Under the pieces are notes generated by a model, which saw only the letters and a list, made by a program, of their open reading frames with translations, was not told the origin of the DNA and made no database searches. A program made the translations under genes and the position numbers. DNA of 64,000 nucleotides. It comes from a virus. The stretch lies in IMG/VR virus record IMGVR_UViG_3300017917_002765, positions 32,001 to 96,000 of that record. One strand, given 5' to 3'. Positions 358-37,207 of the stretch are shown in pieces (the stretch's first letter is position 1; the number at the start of each line of letters is the position of its first letter).

Positions 358-450
358 TTACTTTTTAGACAATAGTTGACCACCTAGGCTTTTATCAGCC
401 TCGGCTGCGAATTCAAACGCAAAATCAAATATGTTAGCAAAAGTTCTCAT
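358..450 (-). CDS. Leader peptide 1, MRTFANIFDFAFEFAAEADKSLGGQLLSKK (Phe/Asp/Glu/Ala sensor)
   Basis: 30-codon ORF after AAAAACA; codons 8-19 are only F/D/E/A; TGGTCAA (376-382) can pair with terminator 5' arm TTGGCCA. Confidence 0.88.
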   Translation of the reverse strand: MRTFANIFDFAFEFAAEADKSLGGQLLSKK

Positions 451-1574: not shown

Positions 1575-2921
1575 TTAATTCCTAATAATTAATACGTGTA
1601 AGCTACCTTGTCTAGCAGCTGTATTAGCTGATGAAACGTTAGCACTAACACCAGCAGTATAAACGGTTCTAACGTCAATTGTGTGTGAACCAGCACTTAA
1701 AGCTTGAAATGATGTTAATGTCCATTGATTACCTGTATTTGTAACATTTGAGCCAGAACCTGAATTAGCCGCAGTAACTCTTGTATAACTACCATTTGTT
1801 GGATATGAGCCATCAATGAATATTGCAAAATCTAATGTAGAATACCCAGTACTAGATGTGCTGTTTGTATTAAATGTACCATCAGTATAAATCATAACAA
1901 AACAATTTGAAGGTATCGTAAGTGTTGTTGTTAGACCTGGTATTGTGGTAAATGTTGTTGTAGATGTTGTAACCAATAATGTAGAACTACCGTAAACTGA
2001 TGTTACTGAATTTCCAAGTGCAGACCATGATAAACCACCAGAACCATCATTTCTAAGAAAAGTATTTGCTGTGCCTTGAGCTGTTGGTAGCGTCATTGAA
2101 TATGAAGTTGTAGTTGTGCCACCGTTAATCGTTACGGTATTGCTATTGGTTGAATTAGCGAATCTTAAACTTCCATCAATAGCACTGGCATTATTACCTA
2201 ATATAAAACCTGTATAGTTAGGTGAAGCAGTAGAGGAAAATCTACCTAATTCTTTATTGGCCACCACAAAACCAAATGAATTGGTCCCAGACCTATAAAT
2301 GCCAGAGTTAGCGTCATTATTAAATCTAATAGCTGGTGTTCCTGTACCACCGTCATTAACTATAACCCCACTATTTGTTTTTATGGCTCCAACAACATCC
2401 AATTTAACACTTGGTGAAGTGGTGCCTATACCAACTGAAGTCCCATCATTATAAATGTTTGAATTGTTTAACACCCACTGAGTCCCATCCCAATATGTTG
2501 TATTACCAGTTGCAGCACCAGAACCTATTAAACCAGTAGCTCCTTGGTTACCCTGTGCACCAGTAGCTCCTTGATTACCCTGTGGGCCAGTAGGACCTTG
2601 ATTACCTGTGGGACCTTGTGGACCTGTAGGCCCCTGTGCACCTGTAGGACCTTGATTACCTGTAGGACCCTGTACACCTGTAGGACCTTGATTACCTGTG
2701 GGACCTTGTGCCCCAACATTTCCATTTATTATTGGTAATCTGATTACTTTTCCAGTATTTGTAACCCCAATGTATTGGGAGTCTAGACCACTTACACCTC
2801 TTATTGTTAAGTCTCCATTAATATCAAGTGTTGTTTGTGGTGAATTTGTGTTTATACCCACATTTTGAGCAAAAACATTAATCGTTAATAAAACGAAAAG
2901 GATTGATAAAATTTTTTTCAT
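1575..2921 (-). CDS. Collagen-repeat fibre or surface protein
   Basis: Signal peptide, NVGINT..P..TLDING repeats, (G-X-Y)n tract, BclA-like C-terminus. Confidence 0.75.
2524..2716 (-). repeat. 18-bp collagen tandem repeat (GPTGNQ)n
   Basis: Repeated cctgtaggaccttgatta-type units. Confidence 0.9.
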
Positions 2922-3688: not shown

Positions 3689-3964
3689 TTATTTTTTTAG
3701 ATATTCATTATATAATGTCCTTACAATCAAACCAATAAAACAAATCGCAAAGATGCAAATTGGCCAAATCCATGACATATTTTCTAACCATTGAAAATCT
3801 CCAGAATTTCTTTTTTCAATTGGTATAGAAATAAAAATTAACCATGGTGTCATCATCAATAAAAATATAGGTATCATTATTGATAAACCAATAAATGTTA
3901 CATTTGAACTTTTCTCACTAAAGAAAAAATATATAGATTCAATAAATTTTTTTTTAATTTTCAT
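3689..3964 (-). CDS. Hypothetical membrane protein
   Basis: Two hydrophobic segments; TATTTAT motif upstream. Confidence 0.55.
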   Translation of the reverse strand: MKIKKKFIESIYFFFSEKSSNVTFIGLSIMIPIFLLMMTPWLIFISIPIEKRNSGDFQWLENMSWIWPICIFAICFIGLIVRTLYNEYLKK

Positions 3965-4011
3965 AACGTATTTTTATAATAAATATTTTGATTAATAAAG
4001 AAAGTCTAAAG

Positions 4012-4093
4012 TAGGGATAGAGGGACTCGAACCCCCACGCCTTTCGGCACTACATCCTAAGTGTAGCGTGTCTACCAATTCCACCATATCCCC
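4012..4093 (-). tRNA. tRNA-Leu(TAG)
   Basis: CTACA-CTTAGGA-TGTAG; type II variable arm. Confidence 0.95.
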
Positions 4094-4149
4094 ATAGAGT
4101 GTAGTAGCTGGTACCTAGCTTGTGGTTACTACACATTTTATCCACTTTG

Positions 4150-4233
4150 TAGCCAAGGAGGGAATCGAACCCCCACGCCCTTTCGAGCACCAGATTTTGA
4201 GTCTGGCGTGTCTACCTGTTCCACCACTTGGCC
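4150..4233 (-). tRNA. tRNA-Leu(CAA)
   Basis: CCAGA-CTCAAAA-TCTGG; type II variable arm. Confidence 0.95.
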
Positions 4234-4309
4234 ATTTCGGAAGGCGTACTCATTAGAGATACTTCCGTCAGTTACGTTGCTTTCGCAAGAGGCTTTACTG
4301 AGCACCATG

Positions 4310-4395
4310 TACCGAGAGTGGGACTCGAACCCACACGACCTTTTAGGGTCACAGCATTTTAAGTGCTGCGTGTCTACCTGTTCCACCATCTCGGC
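4310..4395 (-). tRNA. tRNA-Leu(TAA)
   Basis: CAGCA-CTTAAAA-TGCTG; type II variable arm. Confidence 0.95.
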
Positions 4396-4404
4396 ATTAC
4401 GTTA

Positions 4405-4436
4405 CAAAGGTACAAATAATTATCTTATTTTGCAAA
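4405..4436 (-). promoter_or_regulatory. Internal promoter upstream of the three Leu tRNAs
   Basis: TTTGCA...TACCTTTG between tRNA-Val and tRNA-Leu(TAA). Confidence 0.55.
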
Positions 4437-4455
4437 TCCTATGCAACTTTTTTTG

Positions 4456-4540
4456 TAGGTCCACCCAGATTCGAACTGGGATTATACTTCTCGTCTCCAC
4501 TTTGTAAGAGTGGGATGTTTAGCCATTACACCATGGACCT
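4456..4540 (-). tRNA. tRNA-Val(TAC) with enlarged variable region
   Basis: Acceptor AGGTCCA/TGGACCT; CCACT-CTTACAA-AGTGG; 16-nt variable region. Confidence 0.88.
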
Positions 4541-4549
4541 ATTTTATTG

Positions 4550-4621
4550 AGTCCCCAATTGGATTTGAACCAATGTAAGAGATTTTGCAGACCTCTGCCT
4601 AAGCCACTCGACCATAGGGAC
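4550..4621 (-). tRNA. tRNA-Cys(GCA)
   Basis: GAGGT-CTGCAAA-ATCTC; U discriminator. Confidence 0.93.
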
Positions 4622-4623
4622 AT

Positions 4624-4654
4624 AAAAAAAGCCTATCTTTTTAGGATAGGCTTT
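4624..4654 (-). terminator. Attenuator terminator 2 (before the Cys/Val/Leu tRNA operon)
   Basis: AAAGCCTATC-CTAAAAA-GATAGGC-TTTTTTT. Confidence 0.9.
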
Positions 4655-4682
4655 CTAGTATTTTCAGTTTATGATTACTTAC

Positions 4683-4757
4683 TTAACAAGCAAAGCCCAC
4701 CCAGTCTGCTACTAGCAAACATAAGACAAGGACTAAATTTGTTAATGACGTTTTCAT
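4683..4757 (-). CDS. Leader peptide 2, MKTSLTNLVLVLCLLVADWVGFAC (Leu/Val/Cys sensor)
   Basis: Codons 8-16 are TTA GTC CTT GTC TTA TGT TTG CTA GTA; GGGTGGGCTTT (4692-4702) pairs with terminator 5' arm AAAGCCTATCC. Confidence 0.9.
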   Translation of the reverse strand: MKTSLTNLVLVLCLLVADWVGFAC

Positions 4758-4786
4758 TGTTTTTTGTCGTTTTTAATAAATATACA

Positions 4787-4817
4787 CAAAGGTACAAAAA
4801 GTTTTTCAATTTGTCAA
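4787..4817 (-). promoter_or_regulatory. Bacteroidota sigma70-type promoter for leader 2
   Basis: TTGACA-N17-TACCTTTG. Confidence 0.75.
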
Positions 4818-4857
4818 GTTTTTTAAAAGAAAAAATGTATTTATAGATAAAAAGTGT

Positions 4858-5601
4858 ATGAAAATACTTGAAACCTATAATACCATTTTAAAAGAAGCTG
4901 AAATAGAAGCTTGTGTTAAAAAGTTTGGTTATGAGCTTTTTGGTGATGAATTAGGCGGCAAGGAAAAAAATACTGGAATTGAAAATAAGTATCTTGATGA
5001 CATACGAGATTTTACTGATAATAAATATGGTCAAGAAATAGACCCAGATTTTGTAAAAGCTATCAAAACATTAAAATCTTGCGCTCAACAATATCCAGAA
5101 ATTCTTATTCCAGACAAAACAAAAGTATATCGTGGTTTAACAATACCAATTAAAACATTTGTTGAAAAAAAGACATTCATAGATTTGAATAAACCCTTTC
5201 CTTACACATACACAGCCAAAAGTAAAATTCAAAGTTGGTCTACAAACTTTGATGCCGCTTCAATTTTTGGTAACCATGATATGCTAAATGAATATGCAGC
5301 TACTTTAAACATAGCTGATTATCAAACACCAGAAGCTAGAAAAAAATTATTGGGGGATGTAATTGATAATAATTTAAGAGCAGCTTTTGTTCTTGAGTAC
5401 CAAACCAATTCAAGCGAATTTATCTTTAAAGCTAATTACTTTAGAATTCTATCAAGAGCTTATCATGAAGACGAAGTTATTAGGTTGACAAACAAACCTA
5501 TTAATGTTTTGGCCAAATTTAATGACCATACAGATGTATTTTTAACTTACAAAAGCATTCAGCTTATACGTATTATTAATAAAGCAATATCTGAGCTTTA
5601 A
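4858..5601 (+). CDS. Putative ADP-ribosyltransferase (R-S-E type)
   Basis: KVYRG...QSWST...HEDEVI motifs. Confidence 0.55.
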   Translation: MKILETYNTILKEAEIEACVKKFGYELFGDELGGKEKNTGIENKYLDDIRDFTDNKYGQEIDPDFVKAIKTLKSCAQQYPEILIPDKTKVYRGLTIPIKTFVEKKTFIDLNKPFPYTYTAKSKIQSWSTNFDAASIFGNHDMLNEYAATLNIADYQTPEARKKLLGDVIDNNLRAAFVLEYQTNSSEFIFKANYFRILSRAYHEDEVIRLTNKPINVLAKFNDHTDVFLTYKSIQLIRIINKAISEL

Positions 5602-22278: not shown

Positions 22279-22358
22279 TACAGACGGAGGGACTCGAACC
22301 CCCATTTACAACTCCATTTACGGTTACTAAGTTCGTAGCTTAGCTCGGTTACGTCTGC
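22279..22358 (-). tRNA. Non-canonical tRNA-Arg(ACG): no D-arm, 23-nt variable region
   Basis: Acceptor GCAGACG/CGTCTGT; 8-nt linker; CTAAG-CTACGAA-CTTAG; GGGGG-TTCGAGT-CCCTC. Confidence 0.7.
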
Positions 22359-22509: not shown

Positions 22510-22515
22510 ATGTTG

Positions 22516-22600
22516 CGGATTGGATAGGATTCGAACCTATGTGAACCTTACGGCCTTCGTGTTAACAGCACGCTGCTCTGACCAACTGAGCTACCAATCC
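22516..22600 (-). tRNA. tRNA-Asn(GTT) with long variable arm
   Basis: CGTG-CTGTTAA-CACG; variable hairpin GGCC-GTAA-GGTT. Confidence 0.88.
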
Positions 22601-22608
22601 ATATTTTG

Positions 22609-22684
22609 TCTTGAGGGTGGGACTCGAACCCACACGTGCGAAGATATAAGCTTCCCAGTCTGACCAGTTGACTATTACCTCAAG
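22609..22684 (-). tRNA. tRNA-Ile(TAT)
   Basis: Acceptor CTTGAGG/CCTCAAG; GAAG-CTTATAT-CTTC. Confidence 0.8.
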
Positions 22685-22693
22685 AATTTAAAG

Positions 22694-22777
22694 TTGTGAG
22701 GGTGGGAGTCGAACCCACCTATAGAAATTAATCTCCAGTGTATCAGACTGGTGCCCAAACCGCTAGACCACCTCACA
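22694..22777 (-). tRNA. tRNA-Ile(GAT) with enlarged variable region
   Basis: CCAGT-CTGATAC-ACTGG; 16-nt variable region. Confidence 0.87.
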
Positions 22778-23297: not shown

Positions 23298-23380
23298 CAC
23301 ACTCGGTAGAAGTCGAATCTACAACCATTTAATCCTAAGAACAGATTTGGAGTCTGTTGGTCACGCCCATGAGCGAGTGT
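23298..23380 (-). tRNA. Non-canonical tRNA-Trp(CCA)
   Basis: ACAGA-CTCCAAA-TCTGT; small D-arm; 18-nt variable region. Confidence 0.75.
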
Positions 23381-23385
23381 ATATG

Positions 23386-23678: not shown

Positions 23679-23742
23679 TGTTTTTGTTTTGTGGGTTTCC
23701 CCTGTTTTTTATTAAATATGTGCTTTTTCTTAAAAGTTAATG

Positions 23743-35773: not shown

Positions 35774-37207
35774 TTAGACAGTTACTGCTGAGTAACGTGC
35801 TGAGTTAACAACATCCAGCATCATAGATACTGGAGTTAAATCCTTGCCAGCCAACAAGTTTGTAAGCAACGCTGGGCTGAAACCAGACACCAACGCAGTA
35901 CCGTTCTTGTCAAAGTGAACTGGGAAATTATCACTTCTGGACTGAATGTTCCAGTAAACAACCTTTGGCATTTTGTACCCAGCTTCAGCATACATCTTTT
36001 CAAACATTTGCTGAGCTGAAAGTCCATTATTACCACGAGTTCCAGCGTTGAACTCCATGTCTGACATAATCAGAATCATGGTTGGCATCTCTTCCGCAGA
36101 CACATTAGAAGCCTTAGCTTTTTCAAGTATCAAACGGAATACAGCCTCAACGTTGGTTGACATCGCCCAATCAGCACTTGACAACTGATTGAATCTCTCT
36201 TGCAAATTACCACTAAGGATTTGCAATTGAGGGTTGGTTGAGAAGGTAACAAACGCATCCTTGAAAGGACCAACGTTACGTTCAGAGATGTACAATCCCA
36301 AAGAGACTGCAACATCCATACAAGTAACATTAGGGTTGTTACCAGCTTGGCATCCCATAGAACCAGACACGTCAACTACTGGCAAGAATCTTTCCGCATT
36401 ACCTTCAAGGTAGTTTGGAAGCGCATTCCATTGTGTGTTAGCTCCAGACTTGTCACCAAATCTCAAGTTCTTCACAATGTCATATGGGTATACGGCACCA
36501 GCGTTGATTTTAGTCTCACCCTTGTTAACACTTTCCAAGTAAGCACTGAAACGCTCCTTGTCGTGTTTGCTGAACGCTTTCATCAAGTCGCTCATAGCCT
36601 TAGAAGGTAACTTAGAGTACTCAATAGCTGACCACTCATTAGCACACATCAATTGCTCAACGGTGTTAGAGTTTTCAACCAACAACTTACGGTATTCTTT
36701 TGGAGAAAGACCCAAGTGCTTTCTTAGAGCAGCAGACCATCTTTTCTTTTCACGGTTGCTAACGTTAGGACGTGGCATCCACTTGGCACAAAGACCATTC
36801 TTGTCTGCCAAACCTTTAGCGATAAGGTCAAGAGCCTCATTTTCAAGAGGTGTTCCAACCAAAACTAAAAGGTCATCCCATCTACCGAATTCTGAAATCA
36901 AGTGAAGGTTTTTAACCAACACTTCCTTACGATTAGCTGCAAGGTATTCGATGATGTCACGGAAGATTTTTCTTTCCCCAGCTCCACCACGAACGTCACG
37001 TGCCCAGAACAATAGCTTCATAGCTGTCAACGGATTCTCACCGAATGCTTTTGTGAAAGCATTGATAAGACGGCTCTTATCTTGGCCTCTCATTGCACCA
37101 ATCTGGAAAAACAAGTTTACACAGTGGTTTAAAGAAGATGAGTTAGTCACCATACCGTTTTCAGTAAGCGAATCATTTGTTTGCATTGCAGCTAATAAAG
37201 TATTCAT
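35774..37207 (-). CDS. DUF2828 / TROVE-like vWA protein
   Basis: TENG; LFWARDVRGGAGER; FGRWDDL; AKWMPR; DVSGSM; SDMEF; VYWN; LVSGFSP. Confidence 0.9.
   Translation of the reverse strand: MNTLLAAMQTNDSLTENGMVTNSSSLNHCVNLFFQIGAMRGQDKSRLINAFTKAFGENPLTAMKLLFWARDVRGGAGERKIFRDIIEYLAANRKEVLVKNLHLISEFGRWDDLLVLVGTPLENEALDLIAKGLADKNGLCAKWMPRPNVSNREKKRWSAALRKHLGLSPKEYRKLLVENSNTVEQLMCANEWSAIEYSKLPSKAMSDLMKAFSKHDKERFSAYLESVNKGETKINAGAVYPYDIVKNLRFGDKSGANTQWNALPNYLEGNAERFLPVVDVSGSMGCQAGNNPNVTCMDVAVSLGLYISERNVGPFKDAFVTFSTNPQLQILSGNLQERFNQLSSADWAMSTNVEAVFRLILEKAKASNVSAEEMPTMILIMSDMEFNAGTRGNNGLSAQQMFEKMYAEAGYKMPKVVYWNIQSRSDNFPVHFDKNGTALVSGFSPALLTNLLAGKDLTPVSMMLDVVNSARYSAVTV

Follow-up and report, generated by a model that had tools for sequence, protein, structure and literature searches.

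A predicted leader-peptide attenuator ahead of a phage tRNA operon

What decides when a phage transcribes the transfer RNA (tRNA) genes that it carries? The question is raised by a tRNA operon in an uncultured phage, IMG/VR record IMGVR_UViG_3300017917_002765 (136,575 bases), of which bases 32001-96000 form the window analysed here, a stretch of 64,000 nucleotides (nt). The record has a G+C content of 31%, a completeness of 39% as estimated by CheckV, 29 tRNA genes and one transfer-messenger RNA (tmRNA). On the minus strand of the window, a promoter is followed in turn by a 24-codon open reading frame (ORF), an 11-bp antiterminator, a 10-bp terminator and the genes for tRNA-Cys, tRNA-Val, tRNA-Leu(UAA), tRNA-Leu(CAA) and tRNA-Leu(UAG). 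We argue that this unit is likely a ribosome-mediated (leader-peptide) transcription attenuator that gates the tRNA operon by feedback on tRNA supply, and that the phage probably makes its Cys, Val and Leu tRNAs only when ribosomes are short of them. A first-pass annotation had likened the element to ilv/leu leaders that regulate tRNAs instead; repetition of the layout, the reading frame and the pairing support that proposal in silico, as do masked folds for some of the stall positions. The elements are as follows, in window coordinates, the five tRNAs having been called by both ARAGORN and the Rfam tRNA model.

4817-4787, minus strand: promoter of the Bacteroidota sigma-A type, with TTGACA (4817-4812), a 17-nt spacer and TACCTTTG (4794-4787)
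4758-4786, minus strand: 5′ untranslated leader, A-rich and without a Shine-Dalgarno motif
4757..4683, minus strand: leader ORF, 24 codons plus TAA with an ATG start, reading MKTSLTNLVLVLCLLVADWVGFAC
4736-4710, minus strand: sensor codons 8-16, TTA GTC CTT GTC TTA TGT TTG CTA GTA (LVLVLCLLV)
4694-4734, minus strand: protector (1:2), an apical 7-bp hairpin GTTTGCT/AGCAGAC (4720-4704) plus an extension
4702-4692, minus strand: antiterminator 5′ arm, GGGTGGGCTTT (GGGUGGGCUUU), ending 6 nt ahead of the stop codon
4654-4644, minus strand: antiterminator 3′ arm, AAAGCCTATCC (AAAGCCUAUCC), equal to the terminator 5′ arm plus C4644
4654-4624, minus strand: intrinsic terminator, a 10-bp stem AAAGCCTATC/GATAGGCTTT (4654-4645 with 4637-4628), a 7-nt loop and U7 at 4630-4624
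4549-4621, minus strand: tRNA-Cys(GCA), 52.8 bits
4455-4540, minus strand: tRNA-Val(UAC), 86 nt with an unusually long variable region, 54 bits
4309-4395, minus strand: tRNA-Leu(UAA), 57.8 bits
4149-4233, minus strand: tRNA-Leu(CAA), 57.2 bits
4011-4093, minus strand: tRNA-Leu(UAG), last of the operon, 57.3 bits

Is the leader written in the codons of the tRNAs behind it? The codon run reported by the first-pass annotation is present exactly as given, at codons 8-16 (4736-4710). Runs of nine residues drawn entirely from {C,L,V} occupy only four six-frame windows in the whole 137-kb record (pieces of at least 20 residues), one of which should be the leader itself; within ORFs of at least 150 residues there are none. 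The same layout of promoter, leader, terminator and tRNAs occurs four times in the record, once for each match to a promoter core, and each leader is followed by a different set of tRNAs.

MKTTTTYTGKQYPQGKQ...: leader ahead of Pro, Gln, Tyr, Thr, Gly (two) and Lys (three)
MRTFANIFDFAFEFAAEAD...: leader ahead of Phe, Glu, Asp and Ala
MKTSLTNLVLVLCLLV...: leader of the unit analysed here, ahead of Cys, Val and Leu (three)
MRNINIHINSISMWRRNSN...: leader ahead of Trp, His (two), Ile, Asn (two) and Arg

Among leader codons 2-19, 17, 14, 10 and 14 of the 18 fall in the leader's own tRNA set, the 10 belonging to the Leu/Val/Cys leader, against 0-3 for the sets of the other operons. The record contains very few runs that are as pure as the ones in the leaders.

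The correspondence extends to other phages. Independently of the promoter, a detector was set to pick out ORFs of 20-40 codons, the only further requirements being a T-tract hairpin and a tRNA no more than 400 nt away. Of the 45 distinct candidates so obtained, 33 have four or more tRNAs. These 33 leaders matched their own tRNA sets with a mean z of 3.9, as opposed to -0.12 for the sets of others, a difference reached by none of 20,000 permutations. Three leaders from two loci, L046 and L167, illustrate how the codons track a different partition of the tRNAs (own-set codons in brackets).

L046, leader MKNLTNILPFMPTVEFQLKI... (...ILPFMPTVEFQLKI...): Gln, Phe, Met, Thr, Val, Leu, Glu, Leu, Pro, Ile, Lys (16/18)
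L046, second leader ...NISINHSNRISS...: His, Asn, Ile, Ser, Arg (13/18)
L167, leader ...QITNISNWFSPNYPQC...: Gln, Ser, Cys, Asn, Ile, Tyr, Pro (13/18)

This tracking of the partition is the strongest comparative argument for a functional tie between leader codons and tRNA genes.

Can the RNA behind the leader act as a switch? The terminator hairpin begins 28 nt 3′ of the leader stop and has a folding energy of -11.1 to -12.1 kcal/mol. Its U-tract was said to end 2 nt before tRNA-Cys, as indeed it does: U7 at 4630-4624 is followed by an A and a T, and the tRNA begins at 4621. The proposed 11-bp antiterminator, with its two G:U pairs, was likewise recovered (4702-4692 with 4654-4644) as the predicted fold when the 3′ arm of the terminator is omitted. 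Its 5′ arm lies within the footprint of a ribosome positioned at the stop codon. The protector, described earlier as TTTGCT/AGCAGA, is real as a 7-bp hairpin at 4720-4704, but on its own this hairpin does not overlap the antiterminator arm. Only an extension, in which AGUCC (4734-4730) pairs with GGGCU (4698-4694) and CUUA with UGGG, ties that arm up. Folded in isolation, the antiterminator has an energy of -18.4 kcal/mol and the extended protector one of -13.3 kcal/mol. The unconstrained fold of the whole leader pairs the sensor codons with 4710-4694 and includes the terminator, at -37.1 to -38.9 kcal/mol; at -38.9 kcal/mol its z-score is -3.48 and none of 200 shuffles folds as well. When a ribosome was modelled by masking the RNA up to its 3′ edge before equilibrium folding, the terminator formed with the stop codon in the A site and the antiterminator formed with codon 8, 13 or 14 there. 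A list of terminator-like hairpins places 4628-4654 on the plus strand, the stem being near-palindromic; the hairpin was rejected as the terminator of a convergent gene because the neighbour at 4858 is divergent.

The proposed mechanism would run as follows. Host RNA polymerase would start at the Bacteroidota-type promoter, and a ribosome would load on the A-rich leader and translate the 24-codon ORF. With Leu-, Val- and Cys-tRNAs in ample supply, the ribosome would reach the UAA and its footprint would cover GGGUGGGCUUU (4702-4692); the terminator at 4654-4624 would then form, and transcription would stop in the U-tract, 2 nt ahead of tRNA-Cys. Were any of these tRNAs scarce, the ribosome would stall in codons 8-16, the protector stem would melt and the antiterminator arm would be freed. 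Once AAAGCCUAUCC had been transcribed, the freed arm would pair with it, no terminator would form, and polymerase would enter the genes for tRNA-Cys, tRNA-Val and the three Leu tRNAs. The new tRNAs would relieve the stall, which would close a loop of negative feedback on tRNA supply. Without translation, the protector and the terminator would both form and transcription would stop. The scheme predicts that the ORF is translated, that transcription terminates ahead of the tRNAs and that the outcome depends on tRNA levels.

Does such a device measure tRNA or amino acid? A stalled ribosome cannot distinguish a missing tRNA from an uncharged one, as trp and his attenuation illustrate, and the same attenuator might therefore respond to poor charging or to amino-acid starvation, as host ilv/leu operons do, and not to a lack of tRNA molecules. 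The tRNA output would then be a by-product, or a means of coupling phage tRNA synthesis to the cell's stringent state. That the sensor includes GTC and CTT, probably read by host tRNAs, agrees with starvation sensing. However, extra tRNA brings no relief for amino-acid starvation, which leaves the loop without an evident benefit, and the composition of each leader follows the tRNA genes of its own operon even where the partition differs, which fits a sensor of tRNA supply. We regard starvation sensing as unlikely, and retain feedback on tRNA supply as the preferred function of the attenuator.

Is it the reading frame that is conserved? Scans with the promoter pattern yielded 36 viral stretches and at least 117 metagenome stretches, and a scan with a motif inside the ORF yielded 10 viral stretches; the in-ORF pattern had no match in 185,579 species genomes. 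In the first promoter scan, three of 20 stretches had tRNA genes within 3 kb or a leader of the third-operon type (by our own parse). The records of five relatives each contain one exact promoter site, and one further site with two mismatches turned up among them. From viral and metagenome contigs, 19 distinct leaders of the Leu/Val/Cys type, including that of the window, were aligned. All 19 hold an ATG-started ORF of 24-26 codons with its stop position kept, and in all 19, codons 7-18 include 8-12 Leu, Val or Cys codons out of 12, with at least one Cys codon each by manual reading. All 32 gap runs within the ORF measure 3 or 6 nt, while lengths of 1, 2, 3, 4, 5 and 7 nt occur after the stop. 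Synonymous changes are present within the Leu/Val/Cys block.

These observations bear on a switch that operates without translation. In such a switch the leader RNA would act like a T-box, by direct contact with tRNAs or with a phage protein, and the presence of an open frame would be incidental. A terminator/antiterminator pair could on its own serve any RNA switch. Yet all 19 leaders share the frame together with its length and stop position, their indels come in multiples of three only, synonymous changes occur inside the block, and the sensor consists of nine in-frame codons and not of a single specifier. Moreover, a cmscan search of window 1-31000 against Rfam at E <= 0.1 found no T-box, no riboswitch and no leader family (Leu, His, Thr, Trp and so on); it returned 20 matches to the tRNA model, a tmRNA and three below-threshold matches to the tRNA-Sec, YrlA and STnc100 models. 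We judge direct binding to be very improbable beside ribosome-mediated attenuation.

Is the pairing conserved as well? For the terminator and the apical protector together, 95.7% of cells in the alignment are paired, as against 38-56% for slid partners, and seven pairs have changed on both sides; the covariation score, 0.444 (against at most 0.169), is reached by none of 500 shuffles. Both-side changes occur at six of the ten terminator pairs across the 19 sequences. The apical protector helix, paired in 97% of cells, contains one G-C to A-U double change, found in six sequences. The antiterminator is paired in 86.6% of cells (30-52% when slid), five of its pairs have changed on both sides in 27 cells, and its covariation score of 0.503 (against at most 0.200) is again reached by none of 500 shuffles. 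The duplex of antiterminator and terminator arm beats dinucleotide shuffles at p <= 0.03 in nine of 11 Leu/Val/Cys-type rows. Five sequences form a subfamily whose terminator, AACCCGAAG..., is wholly different and whose arm inside the ORF, TCGGGCTGTG, matches it. The parts of the unit, their spacing, conservation and covariation, and the match of leader to tRNA genes are established by sequence and comparison.

Where the peptide's tail encodes the arm, its residues differ radically among relatives (one position has W, R, K or V), and the arm still pairs with the terminator arm, which points to selection at the level of the RNA there and not of the peptide. This speaks to a further possibility, that the ORF encodes a small hydrophobic protein, that the hairpin merely ends its gene and that the tRNAs are made by unregulated read-through or from other promoters. 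The hydrophobic core LVLVLCLLVA and a promoter-like site inside the operon would suit such a protein. Its hydrophobic run, however, is 10 residues long, and a membrane span is longer than that; the three sister leaders are hydrophilic (KTTTTYTGKQYPQGKQ, RNINIHINS...) although they share the layout and match their own tRNAs; the 2 nt between the U-tract and tRNA-Cys leave no room for a promoter; and RNA pairing is preserved across a radically variable tail. There is little chance, in our estimate, that the leader is a small protein of this kind. A lipoprotein-like signal peptide was also considered, the motif LVLC lying in mid-peptide, and was rejected on the grounds that the peptide has 24 residues only and that the sister leaders are hydrophilic. 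The attenuator remains the reading that we carry forward.

Among relatives, the order of the operon is also stable. In the 12 with a parsed operon, tRNA-Cys always comes first and Val always follows; Leu follows in 11, and the twelfth locus ends early. Interloper tRNAs are found in two relatives, Phe in L188 and Ile(aat) in L189. Three others (L019, L021 and L025) carry an ORF (MEEQRLKKLGIEK... or MEELVRPLGKVKVKKF...) between a terminator of the third-operon type and the first tRNA, where the switch would also gate a protein gene.

Several results weigh against the attenuator as proposed. First, the relatives are kin, and both the covariation cells and the permutation test overstate independence. 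Second, the run was held to cover all five tRNAs, and it does consist of Leu, Val and Cys codons throughout; Val(UAC) and Leu(UAG), however, can read GTC (twice) and CTT neither by Watson-Crick nor by G:U pairing, only by extended wobble, so that by our own reading six of the nine sensor codons are plainly cognate to phage tRNAs. Moreover, GTC makes up only 5% of the phage's Val codons. As GTC and CTT also make the 5′ strand of the extended protector, their choice may be structural; alternatively, the sensor may read the joint pool of host and phage tRNAs. Third, stretches in which at least 10 of 18 residues are in {C,L,V} are common (435 of 98,460 windows), and the case for the leader rests on the pure run, on repetition and on comparison with relatives, not on the 10/18 count. 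Fourth, in three of the six stalls modelled, with the A site at codon 10, 12 or 16, the terminator forms at equilibrium. Because of these folds the model needs kinetic, co-transcriptional folding, in which the antiterminator has the chance to form while the 3′ arm of the terminator is still untranscribed. Fifth, the duplex test found a significant antiterminator in none of five rows of Phe/Glu/Asp/Ala-type leaders at p <= 0.05, and two of the 33 detector rows are evident false positives with negative z.

A last group of objections concerns the transcript itself, for which one further feature is needed.

4435-4405, minus strand: internal promoter-like site, TTGCAA-N17-TACCTTTG, 9 nt ahead of tRNA-Leu(UAA)

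This site may feed the three Leu tRNAs and so bypass the attenuator; the operons of the 12 relatives have no promoter-like site between their tRNAs. Among sequencing runs, only one RNA library (a metatranscriptome) contained a small share of the sequence words (0.07). It yielded a 264-nt contig over 4097-4344, with two differences, that spans two inter-tRNA spacers. The contig fits a polycistronic tRNA precursor, and may also be DNA carried over into the RNA library. No RNA contig from this one library lies on the leader (4622-4786), and contigs cannot reveal transcript ends.

In which host would the attenuator work? The promoter core CTTGACAAATTSAAAAA is common to all four tRNA operons and has four matches in the record against none in a reversed control, while promoter-like sites more broadly (TTG..., then TAnnTTTG) number 23 in the record and seven in the reversed sequence. 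According to a study of flavobacteria, TAnnTTTG is the -7 box of the flavobacterial sigma-A promoter and flavobacteria also lack Shine-Dalgarno sequences (PMC9723704). In the record, a Shine-Dalgarno-like 4-mer lies upstream of seven of 123 ORFs, where an internal control has eight of 123, and the fraction of A among upstream bases is 0.48. The exact promoter pattern was found in 45 contigs of species genomes, 31 of which have Bacteroidota names by manual assignment, and nearly all of the sites stand ahead of ordinary protein genes. The exceptions are two short contigs from metagenome-assembled genomes (MAGs), L199 and L224, with leaders of the third-operon type and tRNAs (4.5 kb in a Methanobacterium MAG and 3.1 kb in a Saccharibacteria MAG); both are probably mis-binned phage fragments. 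From the promoter type, the absence of Shine-Dalgarno motifs and the names of the genome contigs, we infer a host in the Bacteroidota. The same source reports amino-acid operons of a flavobacterium under leader-peptide attenuation (PMC9723704), so the likely host group has the mechanism. As a separate observation, a box, ATATTTATTAAAAAC / ATATTTAWTWAAAAAC, lies between the -7 box and the ATG in all four leaders and is kept in relatives. It could be a translation enhancer or a binding site. The regions that share it are:

window 358-450: shared-box region
window 4758-4786: shared-box region
window 23679-23742: shared-box region
record 28642-28696: shared-box region

How does the unit compare with known systems? 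Searches of the full-text literature found no published account of leader-peptide control of tRNA genes. Leader-peptide attenuation is textbook knowledge for amino-acid operons, and the mechanism proposed here is itself classic, in the style of the trp operon; the difference lies in the regulated product, tRNA genes. The closest parallels in mechanism are the multivalent attenuators of enterobacteria, those of ilvGMEDA (ilvL), ilvBN (ivbL) and leu (leuL). Like the phage unit as proposed here, they have a short ORF with a run of Leu and Val codons that senses several amino acids together, mutually exclusive 1:2, 2:3 and 3:4 hairpins, an intrinsic terminator, and an antiterminator arm masked by a ribosome at the stop codon. 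Unlike them, the phage unit would gate tRNAs rather than biosynthetic enzymes, so that the loop would act on tRNA supply; it includes Cys in the sensor, is phage-borne, has a Bacteroidota-type promoter and no Shine-Dalgarno motif, and bears no sequence or Rfam similarity to these leaders. In Escherichia coli, pheST is attenuated via the pheM leader, an instance of a leader peptide that controls a component of the translation apparatus. There too the peptide senses an aminoacyl-tRNA and the output belongs to the same decoding step, but that output is a synthetase protein for one amino acid, whereas the phage unit has five tRNA genes for three amino acids. The T-box shares with the proposed phage switch a choice between terminator and antiterminator that is made by tRNA status; it differs in binding uncharged tRNA directly, through one specifier codon and with no ORF.

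The nearest published case is the trn operon of Anabaena sp. PCC 7120, which two reports describe as a long tRNA array that translational stress induces and TrcR represses (PMC8421152, PMC10272220). As described there, it resembles the phage unit as modelled here in being an accessory tRNA array that is off until translation is impaired, and differs in being controlled at the promoter, by a repressor on direct repeats, with a response that is global and not specific to amino-acid groups. In the main text of PMC8421152, the terms attenuat-, leader and terminator each occur zero times. A similar layout is found in a cultured phage, Caulobacter phage phiCbK, where an annotated gene, gp083 (45 codons), is followed by an annotated terminator and then by a tRNA block comprising tRNA-Pro (two), Lys (two), Leu (three) and Ser (two), plus a tRNA-Ala called by ARAGORN only. 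Of the 45 residues of gp083, 31 are P, K, L, A or S. As in the phage unit, a short coding sequence, a terminator and tRNAs succeed one another; phiCbK, by contrast, belongs to an unrelated phage lineage with a host of another phylum, and there is no sequence similarity. In a text search of the phiCbK genome paper (PMC3556154), the word 'attenuation' came up zero times.

What would the attenuator mean for the phage? If the model is right, tRNA supply is regulated by demand as measured at the ribosome, codon group by codon group. This would explain how large phages control tRNA sets that are usually regarded as constitutive supplements to codon usage, and it would provide a direct, testable link between phage tRNAs and the depletion or cleavage of host tRNAs. 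Cultured phiCbK, which apparently has this layout too, provides a laboratory system. A wider interpretation, possible in our view and offered tentatively, is that the four codon-matched attenuators amount to surveillance of the tRNA pool, each tRNA group staying silent until ribosomes stall for exactly those tRNAs, as an inducible and self-limiting counter-defence. The stall could follow cleavage by a host anticodon nuclease or the collapse of host tRNA synthesis during infection. Under surveillance of this kind, the phage tRNAs would not be a constitutive codon-usage supplement, and unrelated phages (the phiCbK group) would have reached the same solution independently.

Leader composition would also serve as a natural annotation that predicts the tRNAs behind it, including those that gene finders miss. 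Several observations concern the tRNA inventory. A tRNA-Ala(tgc) at record 31874-31948, just before window base 1, comes after Phe, Glu and Asp, and accounts for the five Ala codons of the Phe/Glu/Asp/Ala leader (leader 1). Rfam finds four tRNA-like matches that ARAGORN missed.

window 22279-22358: tRNA-like match, 32.9 bits
window 22612-22681: tRNA-like match, 28.6 bits
window 23298-23381: tRNA-like match, 30.5 bits (tRNA-Sec model)
window 28862-28930: tRNA-like match, 46.3 bits

By eye, gaps in the fourth operon (Trp/His/Ile/Asn/Arg) hold a Ser(UGA)-like tRNA and a tRNA with a CAU anticodon, which would account for the Ser and Met codons of the fourth leader. Several tRNAs of identities that normally have a short variable arm (Val, Asn, Ile, Lys, Thr and Asp(atc)) are 85-91 nt long; in tRNA-Val(UAC), the T arm and the anticodon stem are, by manual reading, about 17 nt apart. 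They lie at these positions:

window 4455-4540: long tRNA
window 22515-22600: long tRNA
window 22693-22777: long tRNA
record 27203-27293: long tRNA
record 27870-27955: long tRNA
record 30423-30508: long tRNA

Finally, what surrounds the unit? A blastn search of window 3900-4900 against GenBank phages returned tRNA-sized matches only, no record spanning 80% of the query. The divergent neighbour protein at 4858-5601 had no relative among viral contigs when searched with peptide patterns, so shared gene order gave no access to relatives. Pfam and PHROGs searches, with 10 large ORFs each, detected collagen repeats, an AAA ATPase, a DNA ligase, an SbcC-like protein, an RNA-binding protein of phrog_850 and a weak anti-restriction match. 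Individual positions are as follows.

window 1575-2921: ORF for a collagen-repeat protein (Pfam, 3.5e-9)
window 35774-37207: RNA-binding protein of phrog_850 (2e-156)
window 53085-55448: SbcC-like protein (phrog_77, 2.9e-50)

At window 29046-29385 (minus strand), some 300 nt devoid of any leader ORF separate another promoter of the Bacteroidota type (29385-29355) from tRNA-Met. This region matches no Rfam family at E <= 0.1, and the stretch between promoter and tRNA-Met may be a novel RNA. The phage-encoded tmRNA lies at window 29883-30241 (minus strand) with a score of 75 bits, and its tag peptide, as predicted by ARAGORN, ends in ...AGELAVA.

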